Shown: positions 2,407 through 51,197 of the stretch, in pieces
Numbering within the stretch: the stretch's first letter is position 1
Layout: each line of letters starts with the position of its first letter
Source of the DNA: a virus
Strand: one strand, 5' to 3'
Virus record (IMG/VR): IMGVR_UViG_3300035670_000113
Coordinates: 1 to 64,000 of that record
Length of the DNA: 64,000 nt
Translations under genes and position numbers: made by a program
The notes under the pieces: model-generated
Database searches by the model: none
What the model was told of the DNA's origin: nothing
The model's input: only the letters and a program-made list of their open reading frames with translations

Positions 2407-5400
2407 ATGGATTTAGTAAATGTTTTTCATGGAAGTACAAACATTACAGAATATGTAATTTCATATGAGAGAAATCAGAAGATGTGTACAGGAATACATA
2501 CACTATCTCTGACCTTATCTCCTGGCCTGTCTTTTACTCCCTGGGATGTTTTGAGGATATACGAGGAAGGAAATTTAAATGGGGAGTTTTACGTCAGCAG
2601 TTATGGACCTAAGAAACCAAACAATGAGTATATAGTAACGGCTCAGTGTGGTTCAAAACGTCTGGTTGATTATTTTATAGCGGAATCATATACTATAGAA
2701 TATCCTACCTATGCAAGAAGTTGGATAGAACAATTTCTTACGGAGGCAGGTGTAACTTATGAATTTACTACAGAGAGTTATGGGAGCCTTCTTTCTAATA
2801 ACACAACTCTTGGACTGATGAGTGCTTATGACCAGATAATGTATCTACTGCAAATCAGTGGATGGTACATGTATTTTGATGAAAGAAATACTTGCAAGAT
2901 AGGCAAAATGGATGTTGACTATGGAAGAACAAGAGGGACATTTACTAATAGGAAGCTGCTAAGCATTAAACTTGTTAAGCACGATAAAATGTTGAGAAAC
3001 AGGGCTGTAGTGTACGGTAATGTTGATCCATTCACTGGACAGCAGATTATTACAGACATTAGTACAATTACACCCTGGAACTATGATGAGAATGATTTAA
3101 GAGCGGTTGTGGTATCTAATTCCAATATCCCAAACCAAAGCTCTGCAGATACCCTTGCATCACAGATACTCAGTGAGTTTGCAGACATTACTCAAGAAAA
3201 ACACATAACTTTTCACGGTGGAAGTAAATTACACATCGGAGAAGTAGTCAGAATTTCCAACAAAATATTTAATGGAAAAGGTGTAGTTACCACACAGGGT
3301 GCATCTTTGAGCAGAGAAGGACTTGTTGGAATGGCAATATTGGATGAAAGATGCCCAAGACTGTGGGCCTTCTTTGATTATGGTGACTATGTTTATGTTG
3401 GAACTGTAAGTAGTGGAGTATATAGAAAACACATCCTTTGGGATCATACGTGGAGTGGATTCAATGAGGGACTTACAGAGTCTGGCATATCTGACCTGTT
3501 TGTGCGTGGAGGAGTTGCTACGTGCGTCACATTCAGCGGACTCGCATGGGTAACTCTAGCTGAAGAAGTTAAGGCAGCATGGAGTGGAATAATCATTCCT
3601 CCACTAATGACATTTAGTGGAGAGAATAGTGATAGAACACTGTATCCAAGTGGAGATATGTTAGTAGAATCTGGACTAATGGCTAGAGGAGTTATACACG
3701 ATAAAGTTACTAATAATATAAGACTTTTGGTGGATAACTACTCTGGAGGTAATTATCCAGGATTCTTTGATATGTATTCAGGAGTTTTTATTAATGCTAG
3801 TGGTATTACAGCAGAAATGTTCTCAGGACTTCGGGCTTGGGTACTGGACTACACAACCAGTGGAAATCCTGGAGATGATACATCTGCTGACTATGTTAGT
3901 GGATATTATGGATCTCCCATATTGGTGAGTTCATATCCTATAGAAGTATCTGGAAATTTTGGATTTATAGGAATAGACATAGAAAATGATGGCAGATATG
4001 ACTACGTATCCGTTGCTACTTCTGGAGAAGGAGTGCCAACTAATCCAAGTGGAGAATATAATTTTGGATACAGGGGTCCAGTATTTGGGTGGGGTCCTGA
4101 TATAAATATAAAAACAAGTATATCTAGAACTACAGACTTTTCTTCTGGTTTTACTTATACTTCAAGAAACGGTGATGATATATATCCGGCATCTGTATTT
4201 GCTTATGATGACGGAGATGTTGCAGAACTGGCATACGTAAGAAGATTGCCAGTAGGTGGTACAAATGAGGTCTGTCACCTTAAAATAACCAAAGAGTTTG
4301 ATGACTTTTGGAACGAATTCTATCCAGTTAAAACATTTACTTCAAAATCATTGACAGGAATTGGGTTTCCAATTATGGGAACACACAGGGTCGAAGAAGG
4401 TATTTTCAAGTTTTTTGATGGAGAAAAGATGTATGAGTGGGATGTTGCTAATAATACTATAACATCAGAAACAGTAAATTCTACGTCCTTCCCATATGCG
4501 CCTTCTGTCTACATTGACGGAATAGCTTATACAGCATCTGCTAATAACACAAGCAATAACCTTGTTGTTAAATTATTCTCAATAAATACACTAACAGGTG
4601 AGGTTGGAGAGAATGAGGTATTAAACTACCCCGCCGATGATTATAACAGATATAGACTATCAACAATACAGACAGGAAGAGTTAATAATAATCCAGCGTT
4701 TTTAGTTCACTATACTCATGAATATAGAAGTTCATTATTAGATGAGTGGGATACAGCACTTTATGGGGCATATATTCAGGGTCTTACAGCTGCAGGTGTT
4801 GAGCTAATACATGACTTTGAAAGACCTCTAGACTATGGTTCCCCAGACCCTATTTTTGGTATAGAGAATTATATTCAGCTTAATGACTCAACATTTGTTG
4901 GTTCAACTGTGGCAATGTTTACTGACATGACCGGAGATGATCCAGTTTATATCTGGGTAAGAATAACCCAATCAAACGGTTCCTTTAATTTTGAGCAGTT
5001 TACATCTGCCACCTTGACATTGCCACCAACCAATCCACTAGATGGCTATACTACAATTCCTCTTACTGGAACGGATGATGGTGCATTTTTAATGGAAACA
5101 GCTACTGAAACAATATGGAAGGCGGATTCAAAGTGGGGAAATCCTGTAGAGGAGTTCTTAATTGAAGGATATACGGTTGCTAATATAATACAAAATGCAG
5201 ACACTGTAACAGAAGAGATATATGTACTAGTTTATGATGATAACTATGATTACTACCTAATTCCATATGATACAGCAGGTGATGAGGCGGGTAAGAAAAT
5301 AGTATCAACCCTGTCTACTGGAGGCGATGCTACATTGACTATGGCTGGTCCCTGGGTAATAGCCTACTTTCCAAGATATGTACAAAACGAGTTTTCTACA

Positions 5401-16713: not shown

Positions 16714-17124
16714 ATGGATCTCGATACAGCATTAACAGAGTTGGGAAAGATTCCCAATATTAACTCTGGAGGGTGTGGTCTAGTTGCTTTAGCTCTGTAC
16801 AGAATGTTGGAGCGAAAACCAAAAATATTCGCAGTATACGAGTTTCCATCAGAGGTAAATAAGTGGATACCTTATCACTTATTTATTGAGTATGATTCCT
16901 CAGTAATTGATGCTGAAGGAATCTGGCATGATGGGTGGTATCCACATGAGGAGGATCTTTATGTGGCTGAGGAAAGTTTGGTAGTAGTAGAGATTGAAGA
17001 ATCTCTACTACTAAAAATGCTGAACGGGCAAACTCGTGGATCGTGGAATAGTATGTTTGAGCGTGAAAAATATTTCAGAAAAATTGAAGAGATATGTGGT
17101 GTATCTCTCTTGGAGGTAGTATGA
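16714..17124 (+). CDS. Papain/transglutaminase-fold protein (Cys-His-Asp)
   Basis: GGCGLVALAL...YHLFIE...IDAEG. Confidence 0.5.
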   Translation: MDLDTALTELGKIPNINSGGCGLVALALYRMLERKPKIFAVYEFPSEVNKWIPYHLFIEYDSSVIDAEGIWHDGWYPHEEDLYVAEESLVVVEIEESLLLKMLNGQTRGSWNSMFEREKYFRKIEEICGVSLLEVV

Positions 17125-17407: not shown

Positions 17408-18187
17408 ATGCCATACTATCTAGAAAAAGAACCATATCTCCCAGACAGAATCAGGCACGGTTACTACGAGACTAAATGTGATGCATGCCAACAATACTTC
17501 TGTAGGAAGATCGACTCGATGAACTATATTGAGAAGTACCTGGATTTGATGTGCTGTCCTTGCTGTGGGTATGGAAATCGAGTACATAAAGAACGGGTAG
17601 AGGATAATAGTGCAGATGGTTATCAACCTCATGTCGAGGAGATCAAACCTGTCACATACGATGAAAAAGAATACAGCATGGGATTTGAGATAGAATTCTT
17701 TATTCCAGATCCAGTGAAAGATGTTGAATACATCTCCAGAGTTAGAAACCCAAAATACGACACTCTCGGATTTGATGGAGCGACACCCTTCATTAAAGAA
17801 TTCAGAAGTTTTCCTTGCTACTCTGATGACATTAGAACATTATTTGCTAAAGTCTCTCGTGAGTTGGACGAGACTGTACATGTAATCGAGGAATGTGGAG
17901 GTAAGTTGGCCCCCTATAAAATCTCTCTTTCAGGATTACTAACATTTGGAATCCATCTCTCGTTTGGAGGAGACCTTCTGGCTGGAACGTATGGTGATTA
18001 TATCCCTGAAGACACTATTTTGGGAGGTATTCTGGCACAGTTGAAAAAGAAAACTCCCTTCAGGATTGAAAGATATTTTGTTGATAAATTTCGATACCAT
18101 AGGGACAGGGTAGAGTTTAGAGGTTTTTCATCCTCTGAAAACTCAATTAAAATTATCACAGATTTCCTCAAGAATCCCTATTTATAG
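17408..18187 (+). CDS. Divergent COOH-NH2 ligase (amidoligase) with N-terminal Zn ribbon
   Basis: CxxC...CPCC; GFEIEF, DG..EFRS, GIHLS, RVEFRG. Confidence 0.55.
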   Translation: MPYYLEKEPYLPDRIRHGYYETKCDACQQYFCRKIDSMNYIEKYLDLMCCPCCGYGNRVHKERVEDNSADGYQPHVEEIKPVTYDEKEYSMGFEIEFFIPDPVKDVEYISRVRNPKYDTLGFDGATPFIKEFRSFPCYSDDIRTLFAKVSRELDETVHVIEECGGKLAPYKISLSGLLTFGIHLSFGGDLLAGTYGDYIPEDTILGGILAQLKKKTPFRIERYFVDKFRYHRDRVEFRGFSSSENSIKIITDFLKNPYL

Positions 18188-18420
18188 AAAGGAGAAATGC
18201 AATGGACCAACTAACTGTAGTGGCACTTCTTGTTGTATTTTTTATTGCTGGAATGGCATGTGGAATGTCCCTTGCTCTGCTGGTAATGCATATGTACAGG
18301 TAGTTTCTATATATCTGGCGACACCTGCCACCAAATGAGGACTCTATATCACCGAGGGTTCGGATTCGATATACTGATCTGATGGAAAGTGGTGTGACTC
18401 TAAGGGAGAGACCTTGGCCT

Positions 18421-18493
18421 GCCTCTCTAGCTCAATGGATAGAGCAACAGACTTCTAATCTGCAGGTTCAGGGTTCGAGTCCCTGGAGAGGTG
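18421..18493 (+). tRNA. tRNA-Arg(TCT), isolated copy
   Basis: Cloverleaf GCCTCTC/GAGAGGT; loop CTTCTAA; TTCGAGT. Confidence 0.9.
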
Positions 18494-18575
18494 CTAAGGC
18501 TTGAGGGGTTGCCATCTGGAAAACCTGCTCGCAGTAAACAAGAGTAGGAAATTGCCAACTGGTACAAGTTACATG

Positions 18576-18676
18576 TAATCTCAGTCGCACAATTGGTTAG
18601 TGCCGAGACTGTCCATAAGGTGGGCCAGTTTGAGCGGACATTCTTACCATGCTGGTTCGAGTCCAGCCTGAGATTA
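18576..18676 (+). ncRNA. tRNA-like RNA with the anticodon arm replaced by a long stem-loop
   Basis: ATCTCAG/CTGAGAT acceptor, GCAC-AATTGGTTA-GTGC D arm, GCTGG-TTCGAGT-CCAGC T arm; middle GAGA-C-TGTCC...GGACA-T-TCTT with a 21-nt loop. Confidence 0.75.
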
Positions 18677-18678
18677 TA

Positions 18679-18847
18679 GACAGGTGGTAGGTATTGGGGT
18701 CGGGAATACTGAGCCAACACTCCCCGACTCATAAATAGAGTGTAGGCTCATTGCTGTAAGGAGTCACAAGTAACAACATACACTTTACTAGTGACAAAAA
18801 CACATCTCATCAATCACAGTATACCACCATCCAATATACCACCTGTC
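18679..18847 (+). ncRNA. Structured RNA directly upstream of the DIP1984-like gene
   Basis: 11-bp terminal helix GACAGGTGGTA/TACCACCTGTC, internal hairpins, possible pseudoknot. Confidence 0.65.
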
Positions 18848-18862
18848 AAAAAAGGAGAAACC

Positions 18863-19360
18863 GTGAGTGCTAAACCTGTTACTATCATCCACCTGATCGA
18901 AGATATAAATGCTATGCCTAAGAGGATAGACATCCTGATGGAGTCTATCAAATCTGGGGCGTTTGAGTCCCCGATGACTGATGACATTCTGAGGCTGACA
19001 TCACTGATCGAGTCTCTTGGAAATTATAAGAATACCCTGGATACAGCAAACTCTACTATCACAGTAGAGTACAATGGCATTGTTTTAACTTTGTCAGAGG
19101 TCAGGCATCTCAGAGATTCTATGTTAAAGAAGAGTTCTGTTCTCGGCATGTTAGCCTCTTCGCAGAGGGAGAGAGAACGCAAGAATTTTGAAATTGGCTC
19201 AGATGGTGTACAGAGAACGGTGTACATAAAAGAGACATCCCAACTGGACTTTAAGAGGCTGAAAGCAGTGGCTGATGAGTGTGCTAAAGTGGCTAGAGAG
19301 TTGAACGAGTTACTTCAACAGACTAACTGGACCAAAAAAGTAGCCTTAATTGAAGCATAA
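18863..19360 (+). CDS. DIP1984/DUF6847-like coiled-coil protein
   Basis: AAAGGAG RBS before GTG 18863; AN..I..LTLSE...RD and RELNELLQQTNWT C-terminal signature recalled for this family. Confidence 0.6.
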   Translation: MSAKPVTIIHLIEDINAMPKRIDILMESIKSGAFESPMTDDILRLTSLIESLGNYKNTLDTANSTITVEYNGIVLTLSEVRHLRDSMLKKSSVLGMLASSQRERERKNFEIGSDGVQRTVYIKETSQLDFKRLKAVADECAKVARELNELLQQTNWTKKVALIEA

Positions 19361-20960
19361 GGAGATACAAATGAAAACTGATAATACTGAAATTGAGGTT
19401 GGACAGAAGATGTATGCATGTGTAGAAGCTGGAACTACACTAAATCTACTTTTAGAAGACCTATCCTGTGGACATGTTGAGCTTTATCGAAATCCAGAGG
19501 ATGCTGTAGAATCCGAATCTATCTTAGAAGTAGGGAGGAATCTATTGAATCCAGAGGTTGTAGAGATGGAGATCACAAAAATACTGATTCCCCATGTTGA
19601 GACAAGAATCTCTTTTACAGACAAGTAGAAAAAATGAAAACTCGTGTAACTTTTACTGCACAGGAGTACAGAGAAATTGTCAGGGTACTGGCAGGAGCCT
19701 GTGTGGTCAATCAAGAGTACATTAATGCAAATAGAAAAGAAGACTCAGATCATCCTATTGACAGGAAAAACTGTCCAGTAGCACAAAAAATGATCTTTAA
19801 TGGTCTCTTGTGGGCTCCTACTGAACTACTCTCTGATATTGAAAATGAAATTGGAAAGATGATGGGAGAGTTCAGGGCAGAAGTTTTGGATAACTCAGAT
19901 GACTTTTGATTGGAAAAGAGGATAAAATGGATATTTCAGGCATATATGAAACAGACCTGGAAGTTGTGAGAGAAGCGGCAGTTAGATCAGTTATGCTAGA
20001 GCTTTCCAACGATACAGATCCCTGTCAGCATGATATGTTTACGTTCTGTCCCAGTGCTCTTTGTAGAGTCATATCGCTCTTCAATATTTATCCTATGGAT
20101 CTATACCAGAGAATTCTTGGTTATGTACCACTGGAAGAAATGCAATCTTTGGAGGAATACTGGAGGCACTTTATCAATCATCTTGTCAGAGATCCTAATG
20201 ATTTTCAAGTAAGAAATTAACAGTATTTCCATCCCAGAGTATTTGGAACGGTATCTATTTACAAATACACTAACTCGTATCTTACATTTGGTGAGGTAGA
20301 TGACCTGGATTACATCTCCTCAGGTACGTTCAGCAGTAAATTAAGGAGTGCAAAAAACTTATTGAGGGAGATTGCTAAGGAGAAAAGGAAAAATGATTAA
20401 TATCTTTTTCATGGTATATAGTATTTTAGCACGAGTTGCTGATAAAAAATACATTCTTATGTCTCTCAGATTCGCAAGTATTGAGCTACTTGCAGATCTC
20501 ATGCTAATTTTTGTACTTGTTAATATTAACTAAAAAGGATATATCATGCCTCTAAATACAGATACATTTAATGCTTTCTTGGATAAGTTTATGGAAACTC
20601 CTGGAGCTAAATTCCAGACTCTTTTTCAAGAGTTCTTTGGAAAAGTAGATGGGATCTCCACTGAAGAAGAATCCTTCAGTGATCTTGTGGAGATGATCAA
20701 GTGGTTCATAGAAAATTTGGAGGAAAAAATGTAAAATTAAACCATAAAATAAAAACAAACCGATCAAACCAGACTCACTAAAAGGAGAAAAATGAACAGA
20801 GAATATGAGGTTGCTTTCGTTTTACGTGGCAATATTGACATTGTCACAGAAAAGATCCAGGAGTTTCTTAAGAAACTCCATGCAGACGGGGTGATTGAAG
20901 AGGAAGTGGGATGTGTCTGCTTCCTTGACACTGAACTTGATGCTGAAATGGAGGCTGAAG

Positions 20961-21427: not shown

Positions 21428-21733
21428 ATGGAAAATCTAGATCTAGTTTCATGGTATTTAGATATATTCCATAAAGCATATGGATATGGGACTACTCAGA
21501 ATATCTTTCTTTGGTTTTCAGCAGTACATGCTATCAATCTTGTACTGCTGATTCTCCAAACCTTGCTAAACAGGCTTAATAAAAGCCTGTTTCCTCTGAG
21601 TGCTACTATGAAGAATCTCCAATTTTGGGGATTCTTCATGGCAACTGTATGGTTTATTCTAATTGTTGTCTCAGCATATTTTTGGATATGGTGGGATTCC
21701 GTGCTATGCAATTCAGGAGTATACTGCAAATGA
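21428..21733 (+). CDS. Two-TM membrane protein
   Basis: Two long hydrophobic segments. Confidence 0.55.
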   Translation: MENLDLVSWYLDIFHKAYGYGTTQNIFLWFSAVHAINLVLLILQTLLNRLNKSLFPLSATMKNLQFWGFFMATVWFILIVVSAYFWIWWDSVLCNSGVYCK

Positions 21734-39700: not shown

Positions 39701-40829
39701 ATTTCTCTTTTCTCATCTTCTTTTTGTGCTTACTCTTTTTCTTGACATCTCTCTTATTTATTTGTTCTTCGATGGTAAATACGCTCTTTGAGTCCATTAC
39801 CATACCGTAGCGTTTCTTTCTGTTTTTACGCTCTCTAACTGTAGCTTTAGTTATATTCATTTCCTCTATTTCCAGTTAGCATCTTGCAGAACTTTTGCCA
39901 CCTTCTTTGGCGATTCAATTTCTTCTGATCTCTTATCATTGCCTTATGCCGTCTGGCATCTTGTCTGCGTTCTCTTTCATCATCTCTAATCTCTGCCTTT
40001 GTTTTTCCAAACATTTCTACCTACCTTTCTTTATAATACTTTCAAACTCTTCTTTTGTAATTTGTCTAACATCTCCTGCACTGGTCACATAATATATATC
40101 ACACAACCAACAATGAAGAAAGTGGTGTGGTAAAACCCATACGTCATCCAAACAGGAGTTACACACAAAACATTTTTTTCTCATTTGTTTCCCCTTAAAT
40201 ATCTAGTTAAAGTTCTAGTAAGAGTGTCTGACAACAGATCATCATCTTTAGTATACAGAAAATTTATCAATCGGTTTAGGTCTGGTTTAGATAGTGGCAC
40301 ATAAATTAATTCATGTGCATCTCTACATTGGTCTGCTTTAAACTCTGTAGGGAACTCCTTTTCACAATAACTGCAATACCACTTGTCTTTTTTATTAATA
40401 GCCACCAGTACCTACCTGTTCAACCTGTATCATATAAATACCACTCAATGCCTTTGAACACTCCTCAAACAGTCTACACAGAATATCATTACTGGAGTTT
40501 TTATTGATTGTAAAAGGAAACTTTACAGTCACCTTTTTTTGTCCATGTGAACTAAAACATTTACAGGAATATTTAATCATTATGCTCCTTTCATTAGAAA
40601 CACTGTCATTGCGGCTGTACCTACTACTAGAAAAATCTCCCATGTTGCAAGGATGTAGGCATCATATACAGTTGTAGTACCAGTAACAATTCTTTTGTAA
40701 ATACTTTTTAGTAACATAAAAATTTTCTCCTTCCACAGTATGAGCATCTCCATCCGTGCCCGTGATTATAAAACCATACATAAGCTCTGCAAACAGAGCA
40801 ATACATCCATCTCTCTTTTACATTACTTG

Positions 40830-41465
40830 TCATGCGTTATTCTTCCTTGTTTCTGCAGTAAGATCAACAAAAGTCTCTGTTCTTCCCAAATCAAACCCAT
40901 ATGTTAGCCACATTGAGTGAAACTGTGCCGAAGAATATTTATAAATAAGTTGTGAAGGGATTTCATCTTTTCGTTCAAAAATCGTATTTTCTCTGCTGTT
41001 TACTCTTGAAACAATATCTGGAGTAATGTATGCAATTCTGGATGTTGGAATAATTTTCTCACAACCTCTCTTTATCCAATTAATAGATGTTGCAGAGTAA
41101 TCAGCATTAATAAGAAATGCAAACGGCTTATTATATTCAAACGCTTTCTCAATAAATAGGTCCTTTATCGAGAATGGGGGATTGGTTATAATACAGTCTA
41201 TACTGGACAGCTCACTATCTTCCAAAGTTTCTGTTATAAAATTAAACTGCCTATCAATTATGTCTGGTTCAAATCGAATGTCTGTAGTATAAACACCGTA
41301 TCTTTTAGTACCTTCCAAGCGCACGGCTATTTTACCACCACCCGCCGCACATTCCCAAATTGTGCCAACATTTTTAGGAATGAAGGGAATAAGTAAGTCA
41401 ACAGCATAATTAGGCGTTTCAAATGTATCCCTGCCTTGCACGCTTTCGGGCGTTTTGGGGGGCAT
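40830..41465 (-). CDS. Phage adenine DNA methyltransferase
   Basis: DTFETP, WECAAGGG, IITNPPFS. Confidence 0.8.
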   Translation of the reverse strand: MPPKTPESVQGRDTFETPNYAVDLLIPFIPKNVGTIWECAAGGGKIAVRLEGTKRYGVYTTDIRFEPDIIDRQFNFITETLEDSELSSIDCIITNPPFSIKDLFIEKAFEYNKPFAFLINADYSATSINWIKRGCEKIIPTSRIAYITPDIVSRVNSRENTIFERKDEIPSQLIYKYSSAQFHSMWLTYGFDLGRTETFVDLTAETRKNNA

Positions 41466-44852: not shown

Positions 44853-44856
44853 CCTT

Positions 44857-45108
44857 GTATCACATTTAGTAAGCAATCTAATCACAGAAGGTTGCTGAAA
44901 ATCAAGTAAGAAAAGAAAGTCTTACATGCACCAGGCATACCATTAAGATGTATGTATACTATATTAAGTTTAACTGTGAGTGTGACTTATTATAGGGTTA
45001 TCAGGCTGTGACGCTTGAGATTCTACCAAAAATTCAGGTAACGACTGGAAAATGGTAGACGGTTACTAGAATCCGATGCCTTGAAATAAGGTGAGTGCAG
45101 TGTGATAC
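44857..45108 (+). ncRNA. Structured ncRNA candidate B (~250 nt)
   Basis: Terminal helix GTATCACAT/GTGTGATAC; at least five internal hairpins; no ORF. Confidence 0.6.
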
Positions 45109-45110
45109 TT

Positions 45111-45409: not shown

Positions 45410-45712
45410 TAATGTCTGTGTGCCAGACTATAAAAGAACGTCCTACGGTTGAAATGGGATGTGTGGAGGTCTAACATACACAGGCTGTAAGTAACTCTGT
45501 AGTGATATTGGCAGAAGAAGAGATGCAAATTAGACCAGCATCTACTGCGCTCACATTCGGTAGCAATTAAACATGGTTAGTAGGCGAATGTGTGGGGTAG
45601 ACATCCCCCCAAGACGGTGATAATTACAGGCCAGTAATTTGAGTCTTGTGAACCAGAATAATCATAGACAGAGTGAAAGCTAGGAGGCCTTACAAGCTTC
45701 CCACAGACATTA
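45410..45712 (+). ncRNA. Structured ncRNA candidate C (~300 nt)
   Basis: 11-bp terminal helix TAATGTCTGTG/CACAGACATTA; GGGATGT/ACATCCC; CACATTCG/CGAATGTG; GGTCTAA/TTAGACC loop-loop complement. Confidence 0.7.
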
Positions 45713-45716
45713 ACAT

Positions 45717-47976: not shown

Positions 47977-48049
<73 letters not shown>

Positions 48050-48600: not shown

Positions 48601-48898
48601 TTTACAAACATTGGTGACTGAAAGAAATCTTGACTTCGGGAACAAGGTATTTCCATAAGAATCATACTACATGGAAAGTAGGGAAGATAGGAAAGGGTAA
48701 GGTGCTGGTAAAGATATTCTTAGGACAGTAGAATTCCTAAGATCACAGGCAATGTGTATCTCACGAAGTTACACAGTACATGTAAAACCATGTCATCACG
48801 ATAAAAAGAAATTGCTACTCTTTTTGTGATGTGACCGAATACCTGGAACTTCTATCATAATCTTGCAGTTAGTGACGCAACTGCCCAATGTTTATAAA
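48601..48898 (+). ncRNA. Structured ncRNA candidate D (~300 nt)
   Basis: Terminal helix AAACATTGG/CCAATGTTT; about seven hairpins; ACTTCG/CGAAGT loop-loop complement. Confidence 0.7.
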
Positions 48899-48899
48899 T

Positions 48900-49371: not shown

Positions 49372-49484
49372 GCCGAGATAGCTCAATGGTAGAGCACTAA
49401 AAAATTTTAGTCAGTAGATTAGTATCAGCAATAACTATAACCTTTGCAGGGTAGTGGTTCTAGGTTCGACTCCTAGTCTCGGCA
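49372..49484 (+). ncRNA. tRNA body with a circularly permuted CAGCAA module inserted in the anticodon arm
   Basis: GCCGAGA/TCTCGGC acceptor, canonical D and T arms; insert TTAGTC-AG-TA-GATTAG-TA-TCAGCAA; ACC-TTTGCAG-GGT loop. Confidence 0.75.
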
Positions 49485-49691: not shown

Positions 49692-49770
49692 GATTCCTAA
49701 CAGCAAACACAGGAAAAAAAATTCATTTTGAGAATTATATGTGGTTCAAATCCACAAAGAAAGGAATCAG
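49692..49770 (+). promoter_or_regulatory. ACAGCAA module 4: leader RNA overlapping the RBS of the DUF2828 gene
   Basis: GATTCC-TA-ACAGCAA...AATTC-ATTTTGA-GAATT...TGTGG-TTCAAAT-CCACA...GGAATC-AG, then ATG at 49776. Confidence 0.7.
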
Positions 49771-49775
49771 GAATT

Positions 49776-51197
49776 ATGAACAACCTATTTAAGGCACTTA
49801 CTACAAAAGATACTTACACAGAAAATGGTATGCTAGCACACTCAACAACATCTAATCCACTATTGGACATGTTCTTCAAGATTGGAGCTACAAGACATCT
49901 AAGTGAAGTTGATATTGTAGATATCTTCTCAAAAGCATTTGCATATAATCCGACACTGGCTGTAAGATGCATGTTTTACAATCGTGATATTAGGGGAGGC
50001 CAGGGAGAAAGACGTTCATTCAGAGTCATGCTTGCATGGCTAACACAAAATTATCCTGAAACTGCTATAAACATCATTAAGTACGTTCCAGAATATGGTA
50101 GATGGGATGACCTTTTTTCTACTGTTGGTAATTCAAGAGTTTGGAAGGTAGCAACAGATTTTATTTTATTTAGTCTGAAGGCAGGAGATGCACTTTGTGC
50201 AAAGTGGATGCCTAGAGATAATAAGAAGTACAGAGAAATTGCAAATTATCTGGTAGAGACTTGGGGTATAACTCCAAAGCAGTATAGAAAGCTTATTGCT
50301 GGAAATACTAATGTAGTTGAGAGCCTGATGTGCAATGGATTGTGGAACAAGATTAATTATAACAGTGTTCCATCAAAGGCTTCTAATATCTACAGGAACT
50401 CTTTCAAGAGACACGATACAGAAAGATATAACGAATGGATTGATTCTTTGAGCAAGAAAGATACTACTTCAAAAATCAATGCCGGAGCTATTTTTCCACA
50501 TGATATTGTGAAGCCTTATTATGATGGAAAACCATTAGATAGAACTTTGGAAGAGCAGTGGAAGGCTTTACCAGACTACGTTTCTGAGGGTGTTTCTTTT
50601 CTTCCAATTTGTGATGTATCAGGCTCAATGAGCAGTTACGCAGTACTTGATAAGGCCATCACACTTTCTATTTATCTTGCAGAAAGAAATAAGTCCATCT
50701 TTAAAAATGGGTTTATGACATTCTCTGGAGATGCACACTTTGTACAAATTCATTCAAAATCATTGTATGCTAAGGTACAAGAGGTGCGTAATACTAGAAT
50801 TACTAGTATGTGGGAAAGCAATACAGATTTGACCAATCTTTTTAAAGTCCTTCTAGGACACGCTAGAGACGCTGAAGTGTCTCCAAGTGATATGCCTGAC
50901 ACACTGTTGATTCTGTCAGATATGCAATTTGACCCTTCATGGTATAACAGGAATCAAAGTGCTATGGAAATGATTAAAGAAAGTTACGAGAGATTTGGTT
51001 ATAAGTTCCCTAACATAGTTTTCTGGAACCTAAGATCCTCTGATAATGTTCCTGTGAAGGCAGATACTAAGGGTACTATACTAGTGTCTGGCTATAGTCC
51101 TAGCATTATGAAAAATGTTCTTTCAAATGAGTACACTCCCGTAAACATGATGCTACGTGTATTGAATTCAGATAGGTATAGTAAGATAACTTTATGA
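49776..51197 (+). CDS. DUF2828 / TROVE(Ro60)-like helical-repeat plus vWA protein
   Basis: TENG, RDIRGGQGERR, YGRWDDL, AKWMPR, QWKALPDY, MIDAS DVSGS, SDMQFD, FWNL, SGYSP; start reassigned to ATG 49776. Confidence 0.85.
   Translation: MNNLFKALTTKDTYTENGMLAHSTTSNPLLDMFFKIGATRHLSEVDIVDIFSKAFAYNPTLAVRCMFYNRDIRGGQGERRSFRVMLAWLTQNYPETAINIIKYVPEYGRWDDLFSTVGNSRVWKVATDFILFSLKAGDALCAKWMPRDNKKYREIANYLVETWGITPKQYRKLIAGNTNVVESLMCNGLWNKINYNSVPSKASNIYRNSFKRHDTERYNEWIDSLSKKDTTSKINAGAIFPHDIVKPYYDGKPLDRTLEEQWKALPDYVSEGVSFLPICDVSGSMSSYAVLDKAITLSIYLAERNKSIFKNGFMTFSGDAHFVQIHSKSLYAKVQEVRNTRITSMWESNTDLTNLFKVLLGHARDAEVSPSDMPDTLLILSDMQFDPSWYNRNQSAMEMIKESYERFGYKFPNIVFWNLRSSDNVPVKADTKGTILVSGYSPSIMKNVLSNEYTPVNMMLRVLNSDRYSKITL

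Follow-up and report, generated by a model that had tools for sequence, protein, structure and literature searches.

A structured RNA in front of a divergent phage DUF6847 gene and its possible kinship with the RNA found behind other DUF6847 genes

The first 64 kb of the IMG/VR phage record IMGVR_UViG_3300035670_000113 (hereafter, the window; the whole record comprises 87,182 bp with direct terminal repeats) contain a strongly folded element of 169 nucleotides (nt) located immediately upstream of a small gene from the DUF6847/DIP1984 family. This arrangement raises the question of whether the element is an RNA partner of the encoded protein or a structured spacer that happens to precede its gene. 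The answer has a general and a particular part. At the level of the family, the linkage between DUF6847 genes and a conserved RNA is real. The phage element does not fit cleanly into this RNA family; comparisons of sequence and predicted structure point to distant kinship. Our preferred explanation, which we consider fairly probable, is that the element is a strongly diverged and rearranged phage version of the DUF6847-linked RNA and that it acts jointly with the product of the gene starting 15 nt further on.

The element and the protein encoded behind it

The element, its parts, and the adjacent gene are as follows (MFE, minimum free energy; aa, amino acids).

18679-18847, + strand: end-closed structured RNA of 169 nt, candidate partner RNA of the DUF6847 protein (fold z -5.86)
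18679-18689, + strand: 5' strand of the closing helix, 11 bp, pairing with 18837-18847
18692-18703, + strand: 5' strand of the second closing helix (TATTGG, GGT, GG), pairing with 18824-18836 in the MFE structure
18711-18722 with 18738-18749, + strand: hairpin GAGCC-A-ACACTC/GAGTGT-A-GGCTC, seen in the sequence
18697-18730, + strand: pseudoknot stem A, G-run 18697-18704 with C-run 18723-18730, enclosing the 5' strand of stem B
18711-18749, + strand: pseudoknot stem B, GAGCC 18711-18715 with GGCTC 18745-18749, extended here by ACACTC/GAGTGT
18763-18767 with 18791-18795, + strand: hairpin GTCAC/GTGAC, seen in the sequence
18763-18797, + strand: five consecutive 7-nt units, each with AC as its fourth and fifth letters (GTCACAA GTAACAA CATACAC TTTACTA GTGACAA), seen from their periodicity
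18853-18857, + strand: Shine-Dalgarno sequence AGGAG, unpaired in the fold, 5 nt past the end of the element
18863-19360, + strand: gene of 165 aa with a GTG start, encoding a divergent DUF6847/DIP1984-family protein (Pfam, hhalign)

The MFE of the element is -57.0 kcal/mol, and none of 200 dinucleotide shuffles was equally stable; for the minus strand, the fold z-score is -4.17. The element remains an independent domain when folded within a context of 386 nt. Fold stability by itself is not unique to it in the genome, because the element ranks only 11th (z -5.9) in a local-fold scan of the + strand of all 87 kb. Eleven structures of such stability exist in the real genome, compared to 1, 1, and 0 in three block-shuffled genomes. 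No Rfam match to the element, RAGATH-27 included, was obtained at E-values up to 10, no second copy was found in the genome, and the single-sequence model of the element (R1) recovered the element alone.

Inside the second closing helix, TATTGG (18692-18697) complements CCAATA (18831-18836). The loop of the central hairpin, CCCGACTC (18723-18730), complements GGGTCGGG (18697-18704), one G-U pair included, and this pairing forms stem A of a two-stem pseudoknot. The pseudoknot duplex has an energy of -13.1 kcal/mol, which was reached by 30 of 2000 shuffled loops and by 14 of 2000 shuffled upstream segments. In an alternative register of stem A, 18700-18705 pairs with 18721-18727 leaving a bulged C, and this register mirrors the one seen in the relatives described below. 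Because the G-run pairs either with the 3' strand of the closing helix or with the hairpin loop, a conformational choice between the nested fold and the pseudoknot is possible; nested pairing adds 7.7 kcal/mol and the pseudoknot duplex 13.1 kcal/mol before knot penalties.

The pseudoknot is followed by the row of 7-nt units, where AC stands in phase in five of six successive heptads (p = 0.001, 2000 shuffles), compared to p of 0.34-0.99 in other spacer RNAs of this phage. Lag-7 autocorrelation alone is weak, with z from +1.7 to +2.3 in the element and a mean of +0.72 in the RNA family. The A/C-rich tract at 18796-18830, containing one G in 35 nt, is a looser continuation of the row. The 3' end of the element lies 15 nt before the GTG start codon at 18863. 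All structural parts of this domain that had been listed in an earlier note on the same DNA are indeed present.

The earlier note had also assigned the downstream gene to the DIP1984/DUF6847 family and had pointed to a C-terminal Q..NW(T) signature; both statements hold. Pfam PF20935 (DUF6847) matches residues 46-158 with 32.1 bits at a cut-off of 27 (E 1.3e-7), this being its sole match in the genome, and hhalign against five family members gives a probability of 99%. Residues N63, R84-D85, Q152, N155, and W156 are invariant in an alignment of eight sequences, and N63, Q152, N155, and W156 are still invariant among 68 sequences, so that Q..NW is common to all of them. The crystal structure 3KDQ is matched by the phage protein alone with E 0.01 and by the family profile with 1.9e-48. 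The NCBIfam model for DIP1984 (NF038048) yields only 26.8 bits at a cut-off of 70, the phage protein being a distant member.

The phage protein shares 16-29% identity with 67 relatives and does not have the MKLAEAL..R start of the family; judged by these comparisons, it seems to be the most divergent DUF6847 member found. No close relatives were found: a search of 1.84 billion representative proteins gave seven distant matches with 27-36% identity and none above 36%, and tblastn against GenBank phages gave no match. Phage T5 contains no PF20935 match. Neither a toxin-like nor a defence family matched the protein. Its relatives are annotated as 'DIP1984 family protein' in plasmid records. No published function for DUF6847, PF20935, or DIP1984 was found in a literature search; the two papers that mention 'DIP1984' concern other subjects, judged from the listing. 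The genes named 'septicolysin' are probably members of DUF6847/DIP1984. Passages of Acinetobacter plasmid papers treat 'septicolysin' genes as putative cytolysins (PMC5559437).

The RNA linked to DUF6847 genes

The family was surveyed in 83 DUF6847 loci, 418 kb in total. An alignment of 32 sequences from behind DUF6847 genes yielded a consensus with covarying helices, and the model based on these 32 RNAs (R2) matched 76 of the 83 loci at E<=0.01. All of these matches are on the strand of the gene and just past it, and none was found elsewhere in the 418 kb. With filters switched off, a 77th locus was gained, together with weak but correctly placed matches in three others. In total, one conserved covarying RNA is observed downstream of the gene in 77 of 83 loci, and never upstream. 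The earlier note had suggested aligning the flanks of homologous genes in search of a conserved adjacent structure; such a structure exists, on the downstream side.

The RNA starts at a median of 7.5 nt past the stop codon. Its size is roughly 150-230 nt, and it lies about 0-400 nt past each DUF6847 gene (cellular loci L005-L084). The hosts belong to many bacterial phyla and also include archaea of the Methanomassiliicoccales type. The helices are well supported by comparison: in 71 aligned RNAs, 96.3% of cells are paired, vs 26-38% when the partners are slid, and two-sided changes occur in 299 cells, vs 13-42 in the slid controls. The outer helices include the GCGAGCACA/GTGCTGA pairing. Terminal closure by at least seven consecutive flank pairs is seen in 25 of 45 RNAs, compared to 3 of 45 with a shuffled flank. 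A strict G-rich 3' motif, GAGGGNGGGN(2-5)GGGG with its invariant GAGGGNGGGNNNGGGG, recurs in 47 of the 83 loci, on the strand of the gene and 157-592 nt past the stop codon. AC is in phase at p<=0.05 in 16 of 76 family RNAs, with about four expected. Some copies contain a T-arm-like GGGTTCGAATCCC hairpin. When Rfam was applied with gathering thresholds to 40 of the 83 loci, only tRNA and transfer-messenger RNA (tmRNA) were matched; as far as searched, the DUF6847-linked RNA is absent both from Rfam matches and from print.

The opposite flank looks different. In 81 DUF6847 loci, the 170 nt upstream of the gene are not structured (median z -0.46; none of the 81 reaches z<=-4), and the one-sequence model of the phage element finds nothing upstream of homologous genes. 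The previous open reading frame (ORF) in these 81 loci is at a median distance of 89 nt, and 27 of the gaps are shorter than 50 nt. We considered this upstream null result as a refutation of a partner RNA and rejected it as such, because the family RNA is located behind the gene. The family has no shared neighbour gene: among 30 same-strand neighbours, no protein family occurs in more than two members. A dedicated covarying RNA stands beside almost every sampled member of the widespread DUF6847 family, and the question becomes a concrete one, namely, what role the protein-RNA pair has.

Kinship of the element with the DUF6847-linked RNA and rival explanations

The phage gene leaves no space for an RNA on its downstream side, because the next ORF begins 11 nt past the stop codon.

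19371-19628, + strand: next ORF, 85 aa, with its own ribosome-binding site, starting 11 nt past the DUF6847 stop codon; no match in Pfam or PHROG

A canonical copy of the family RNA was not found elsewhere in the phage, and the element, which abuts the gene and lies on the same strand, is the sole adjacent RNA candidate. Since nine in ten family genes adjoin such an RNA and no other candidate is present here, the prior for the element being the partner RNA is strong.

Direct comparison adds to this prior. In Smith-Waterman alignments with 80 family RNAs, the element outscores every one of 150 dinucleotide shuffles, with a z of +3.2 for the mean and +4.5 for the top ten. The z-scores are -1.1 to -0.2 for the reverse complement of the element and -1.0 to +2.2 for three other spacer RNAs of the phage; for the nearest of these controls (z +1.1 to +2.2), 4-18 of 150 shuffles of the control itself do equally well. 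The element is aligned best with RNAs of the Bacteroidales type, and these alignments run collinearly through 18693-18790 (~100 nt). A sub-family model (R3) was built from 17 Bacteroidales-type RNAs, the element being left out; its E-values, like those of R2, are rough by design. On 18695-18793, R3 gives 11.1 bits over all 91 model positions, and within 500 nt of the gene the element ranks first of seven matches (E 0.032).

The structural correspondence centres on the pseudoknot, whose topology, with stem A enclosing the 5' strand of stem B, is common to the element and its relatives. Stem B is aligned column for column and is paired in all 18 sequences, the element included, with two-sided changes in three of five pairs. 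The equivalent of stem A is 91% paired in the 17 relatives and the element, and four of its five pairs show two-sided changes. Further downstream, the unit row aligns through TTACTA to a row in the relatives that ends in TTACTACC, and TACCACC occurs in the element ~30 nt later than in the relatives. Overall, the element resembles the DUF6847-linked RNA in size (169 nt), terminal helix, central two-stem pseudoknot, strand, abutment on the gene, and, less clearly, in a unit row with TTACTA. It differs in the longer loop within stem A and in the exact 7-nt spacing of its units.

A number of observations speak against counting the element as a version of the family RNA. The family RNA is upstream of the gene in 0 of 83 loci, and the element is upstream. 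The whole-RNA model R2 gives the element only 7.7 bits in an ends-only alignment, which is rank 3 of 12 chance-like matches in the window (E 0.068); when R3 is applied to the whole 64-kb window, the element is third of four matches (E 1.4); and a sequence profile (nhmmer) finds no match in the element. In the alignment, the element's own stem A is out of register. The outer helices carrying the GCGAGCACA/GTGCTGA pairing are missing from the element, and so is the 3' G-rich motif, the G-run being on the 5' side instead. A contig from a second sample is identical over 18433-19258, so that the element has no covariation evidence of its own. Another phage, of 198 kb (locus L002), has a DUF6847 gene with no partner RNA detectable on either side. 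Finally, the phage protein is not basic (isoelectric point 6.75; family median 5.95), and its near-neutral value does not favour a classical basic RNA-binding surface.

The sensitivity of the models is clearly limited, because three loci (L003, L006, and L007) show the family helices by eye yet score only 4-8 bits with R2. The 3' G-rich motif, judged by eye, is apparently missing also from the Bacteroidales-type relatives. Taken singly, the arguments connecting the element with the family RNA are all weak (p of roughly 0.001-0.03), and some were picked after looking; they are, however, of different kinds, namely, position, strand-specific similarity, pseudoknot topology, and unit periodicity. 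The proposal of the earlier note that the DUF6847 protein has a dedicated RNA is therefore upheld in part: the family-wide RNA, the shared pseudoknot, the candidate unit row, and the above-chance similarity agree with it, and the weak model scores and the location on the opposite side of the gene do not.

The surroundings of the element suggest another explanation. It belongs to a non-coding island of ~560 nt, which contains, in the 5' to 3' order, tRNA-Arg(TCT), a tRNA look-alike, the element, AGGAG, and the GTG start. The features in question, including similar spacers in the main tRNA array of the phage, are the following.

18421-18494, + strand: tRNA-Arg(TCT), first in the island (ARAGORN; Rfam tRNA, 66.1 bits)
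18577-18676, + strand: tRNA look-alike whose acceptor, D, and T arms are normal and whose anticodon arm contains an insert of 26 nt (ARAGORN, intron option only)
44855-45110: end-closed tRNA-array spacer, fold z -4.06
45410-45716: end-closed tRNA-array spacer, fold z -2.95
48601-48899: end-closed tRNA-array spacer, fold z -1.9

Accordingly, the element could be a tRNA-linked spacer RNA that functions in processing, in protection of the 5' end of the message, or as a stable RNA like RNAC and RNAD of phage T4, its adjacency to the DUF6847 gene being positional only. The element starts 2 nt past the tRNA look-alike and ~185 nt past tRNA-Arg, and its free ribosome-binding site is what would be expected of a 5' stabiliser. 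At least these three main-array spacers are also closed by terminal helices of at least 10 bp that abut tRNAs, with no DUF6847 gene involved, which both favours a spacer and weakens the case for a partner RNA; the similarity of the element to the family RNA, weak on the scale of the window, fits a spacer as well. RNAC and RNAD are likewise non-coding RNAs beside phage tRNA genes, and one source still terms them RNAs of unknown function (PMC9697503). The element differs from the stable RNAs of phage tRNA regions in having no sequence or Rfam match. Among such RNAs, GOLLD and ROOL are several times longer than the element, and we know of no tie between a DUF6847 gene and any of T4 RNAC/RNAD, GOLLD, or ROOL. 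The comparison with the other spacer RNAs of the phage runs against this explanation, since those RNAs lack the in-phase AC row, do not show the element's excess of similarity to the RNAs linked to DUF6847, and have no sequence in common with it. Moreover, with an RNA partner adjoining 77 of 83 DUF6847 genes, a coincidence at this locus is unlikely. On balance, we regard a tRNA-linked spacer as rather unlikely.

Three other possibilities have lower probability. A purely cis-acting 5' leader, either switching between nested and pseudoknotted folds or serving as an operator for self-repression by the protein, would agree with the element ending 15 nt before the start codon and with the two competing partners of its G-run, whose net worth is similar. 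However, the ribosome-binding site and the start codon are unpaired in both folds, the homologous RNA of the relatives is behind the gene and unable to act as a leader, and no riboswitch or leader family is matched, which makes a leader quite improbable. A DNA-level feature or a chance structure, such as a palindrome bound by a protein or the inverted repeats at the ends of a small mobile element, is suggested by the 17/19 inverted repeat around ~135 bp and by good folding on both strands; by our own arithmetic, 87 kb of sequence should contain a few inverted repeats of 11 bp within 250 bp. Here, the genome contains no further copy, a search with the DNA pattern of the pseudoknot gave 20 metagenome matches of which none was homologous, and a flanking target duplication is not seen in the sequence. 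Since, in addition, only the + strand shows the similarity to the family RNAs and the internal stems correspond to covarying RNA stems of the relatives, we find a DNA-level origin highly improbable.

The earlier note had also considered a type III antitoxin-like role, where the RNA would neutralise a toxic protein. In ToxIN, the RNA is encoded just before its protein partner, and this RNA, ToxI, consists of tandem 36-nt repeats that the toxin cleaves. The phage locus has the same layout, a structured RNA right before a small gene, and the similarity ends there: the element is not a tandem repeat, and none is present at 18150-19450; no toxin or defence family is matched; and the helical family occurs as a single gene with varied neighbours and no conserved second gene. 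We find this role unsupported and extremely improbable. A retron was considered separately and rejected, as the whole 87-kb genome contains no match to RVT_1 (reverse transcriptase).

Possible mode of action and the phage setting

If the element is the phage version of the DUF6847-linked RNA, the following scenario may be proposed. A single + strand transcript would run from tRNA-Arg through the tRNA look-alike and the element into the gene; that the tRNAs belong to it is suggested by their location on the same strand and by the finding that intrinsic terminators and promoters do not exceed shuffle expectation. Processing of the tRNAs would then create a free 5' end beside the 11-bp closing helix. 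The closing helices and the two-stem pseudoknot may hold the RNA in shape and present the row of 7-nt units, along which copies of the small helical protein could bind to form a protein-RNA particle.

Two systems serve as models for the proposed binding of protomers to the unit row. On the trp leader, evenly spaced GAG/UAG triplets are read by TRAP, a beta-sheet ring protein, and the mechanism may be analogous. In VIPR, as described in two preprints, the small phage-borne protein Vipr oligomerises along an RNA composed of short evenly spaced units (10.64898/2026.04.26.720920, 10.64898/2026.04.26.720927). The likeness to the phage pair concerns a possible mode of action only. Vipr is a RAMP/RRM protein, whereas the phage protein is a presumably helical DUF6847 member, and the vrRNA units described there are 5-nt YNNGG, whereas the row of the element is nearly G-free with a 7-nt period. 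The words 'coiled', 'helical', and 'tRNA' do not occur in the main text of the VIPR preprint.

A bolder version of this scenario is that the unit row is a programmable read-out, in which one DUF6847 protomer grips the AC of each unit, leaving the five variable bases in between to specify, jointly, a nucleic-acid target. We consider this decidedly improbable. If true, DUF6847 and its RNA would constitute a second RNA-guided recognition system, based on a helical protein and a gapped code, analogous to VIPR but evolutionarily unrelated to it, and distributed in bacteria, archaea, and phages.

Irrespective of the mode of action, the phage locus contributes the most divergent protein found in the family and a reversed gene order. 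If kinship is accepted, the RNA here is stripped to the closing helices, the pseudoknot, and the unit row, a hint that the functional core consists of these parts. In addition, the pair has tRNA genes and a tRNA look-alike as neighbours at this locus, and the phage as a whole is crowded with unexplained RNAs.

The family-A DNA polymerase (PolA) of the phage has less than 30% identity to any counterpart from GenBank phages, and no close relative of PolA was found among IMG/VR sequences; likewise, no relative of the 259-aa gene upstream of the island was found in metagenome contigs. The reads that match the stretch of the locus come only from DNA runs of one subsurface-metagenome study, with none listed as RNA. 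ARAGORN finds 28 tRNA genes in the genome, and 30 when introns are allowed. The tRNA-Arg(TCT) at 18421 differs in sequence from the second tRNA-Arg(TCT) of the phage at 47977. The tRNA look-alike has a 9-bp acceptor repeat (18576-18584/18668-18676), and its 3' end is 2 nt before the element; the loop of its insert contains AAGGTGGG, which resembles the G motif of the DUF6847-linked RNA. The unrelated IMG/VR phage L002 has a tRNA-Arg(TCT) at 2726-2799, 275 nt before its DUF6847 gene at 3001-3522, as in the window. Between the 259-aa gene and tRNA-Arg, a 33-codon ORF (18203-18303) with its own AAAGGAG ribosome-binding site encodes a hydrophobic product like a membrane peptide.

Several other parts of the genome also attracted our attention. 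The most stable local folds of the + strand, at 21471-21658 (z -9.6) and 16832-17023 (z -8.4), fall within nominal ORFs (101 and 136 aa) not assigned to any family, and either could be a structured RNA instead of a gene. Just before the main tRNA array, model R3 gives 12.0 bits at 41163-41220 (+ strand) and 11.6 bits at 40289-40372 (- strand), both with E ~1 and probably by chance. A second interrupted tRNA of the phage is located at 49372-49484; this 113-nt sequence is an Rfam tRNA with 53.1 bits and is recognised by ARAGORN only with a 43-nt insert. At the end of the tRNA array, the region 49728-51194 encodes a 489-aa protein with DUF2828 and DUF7788 domains.

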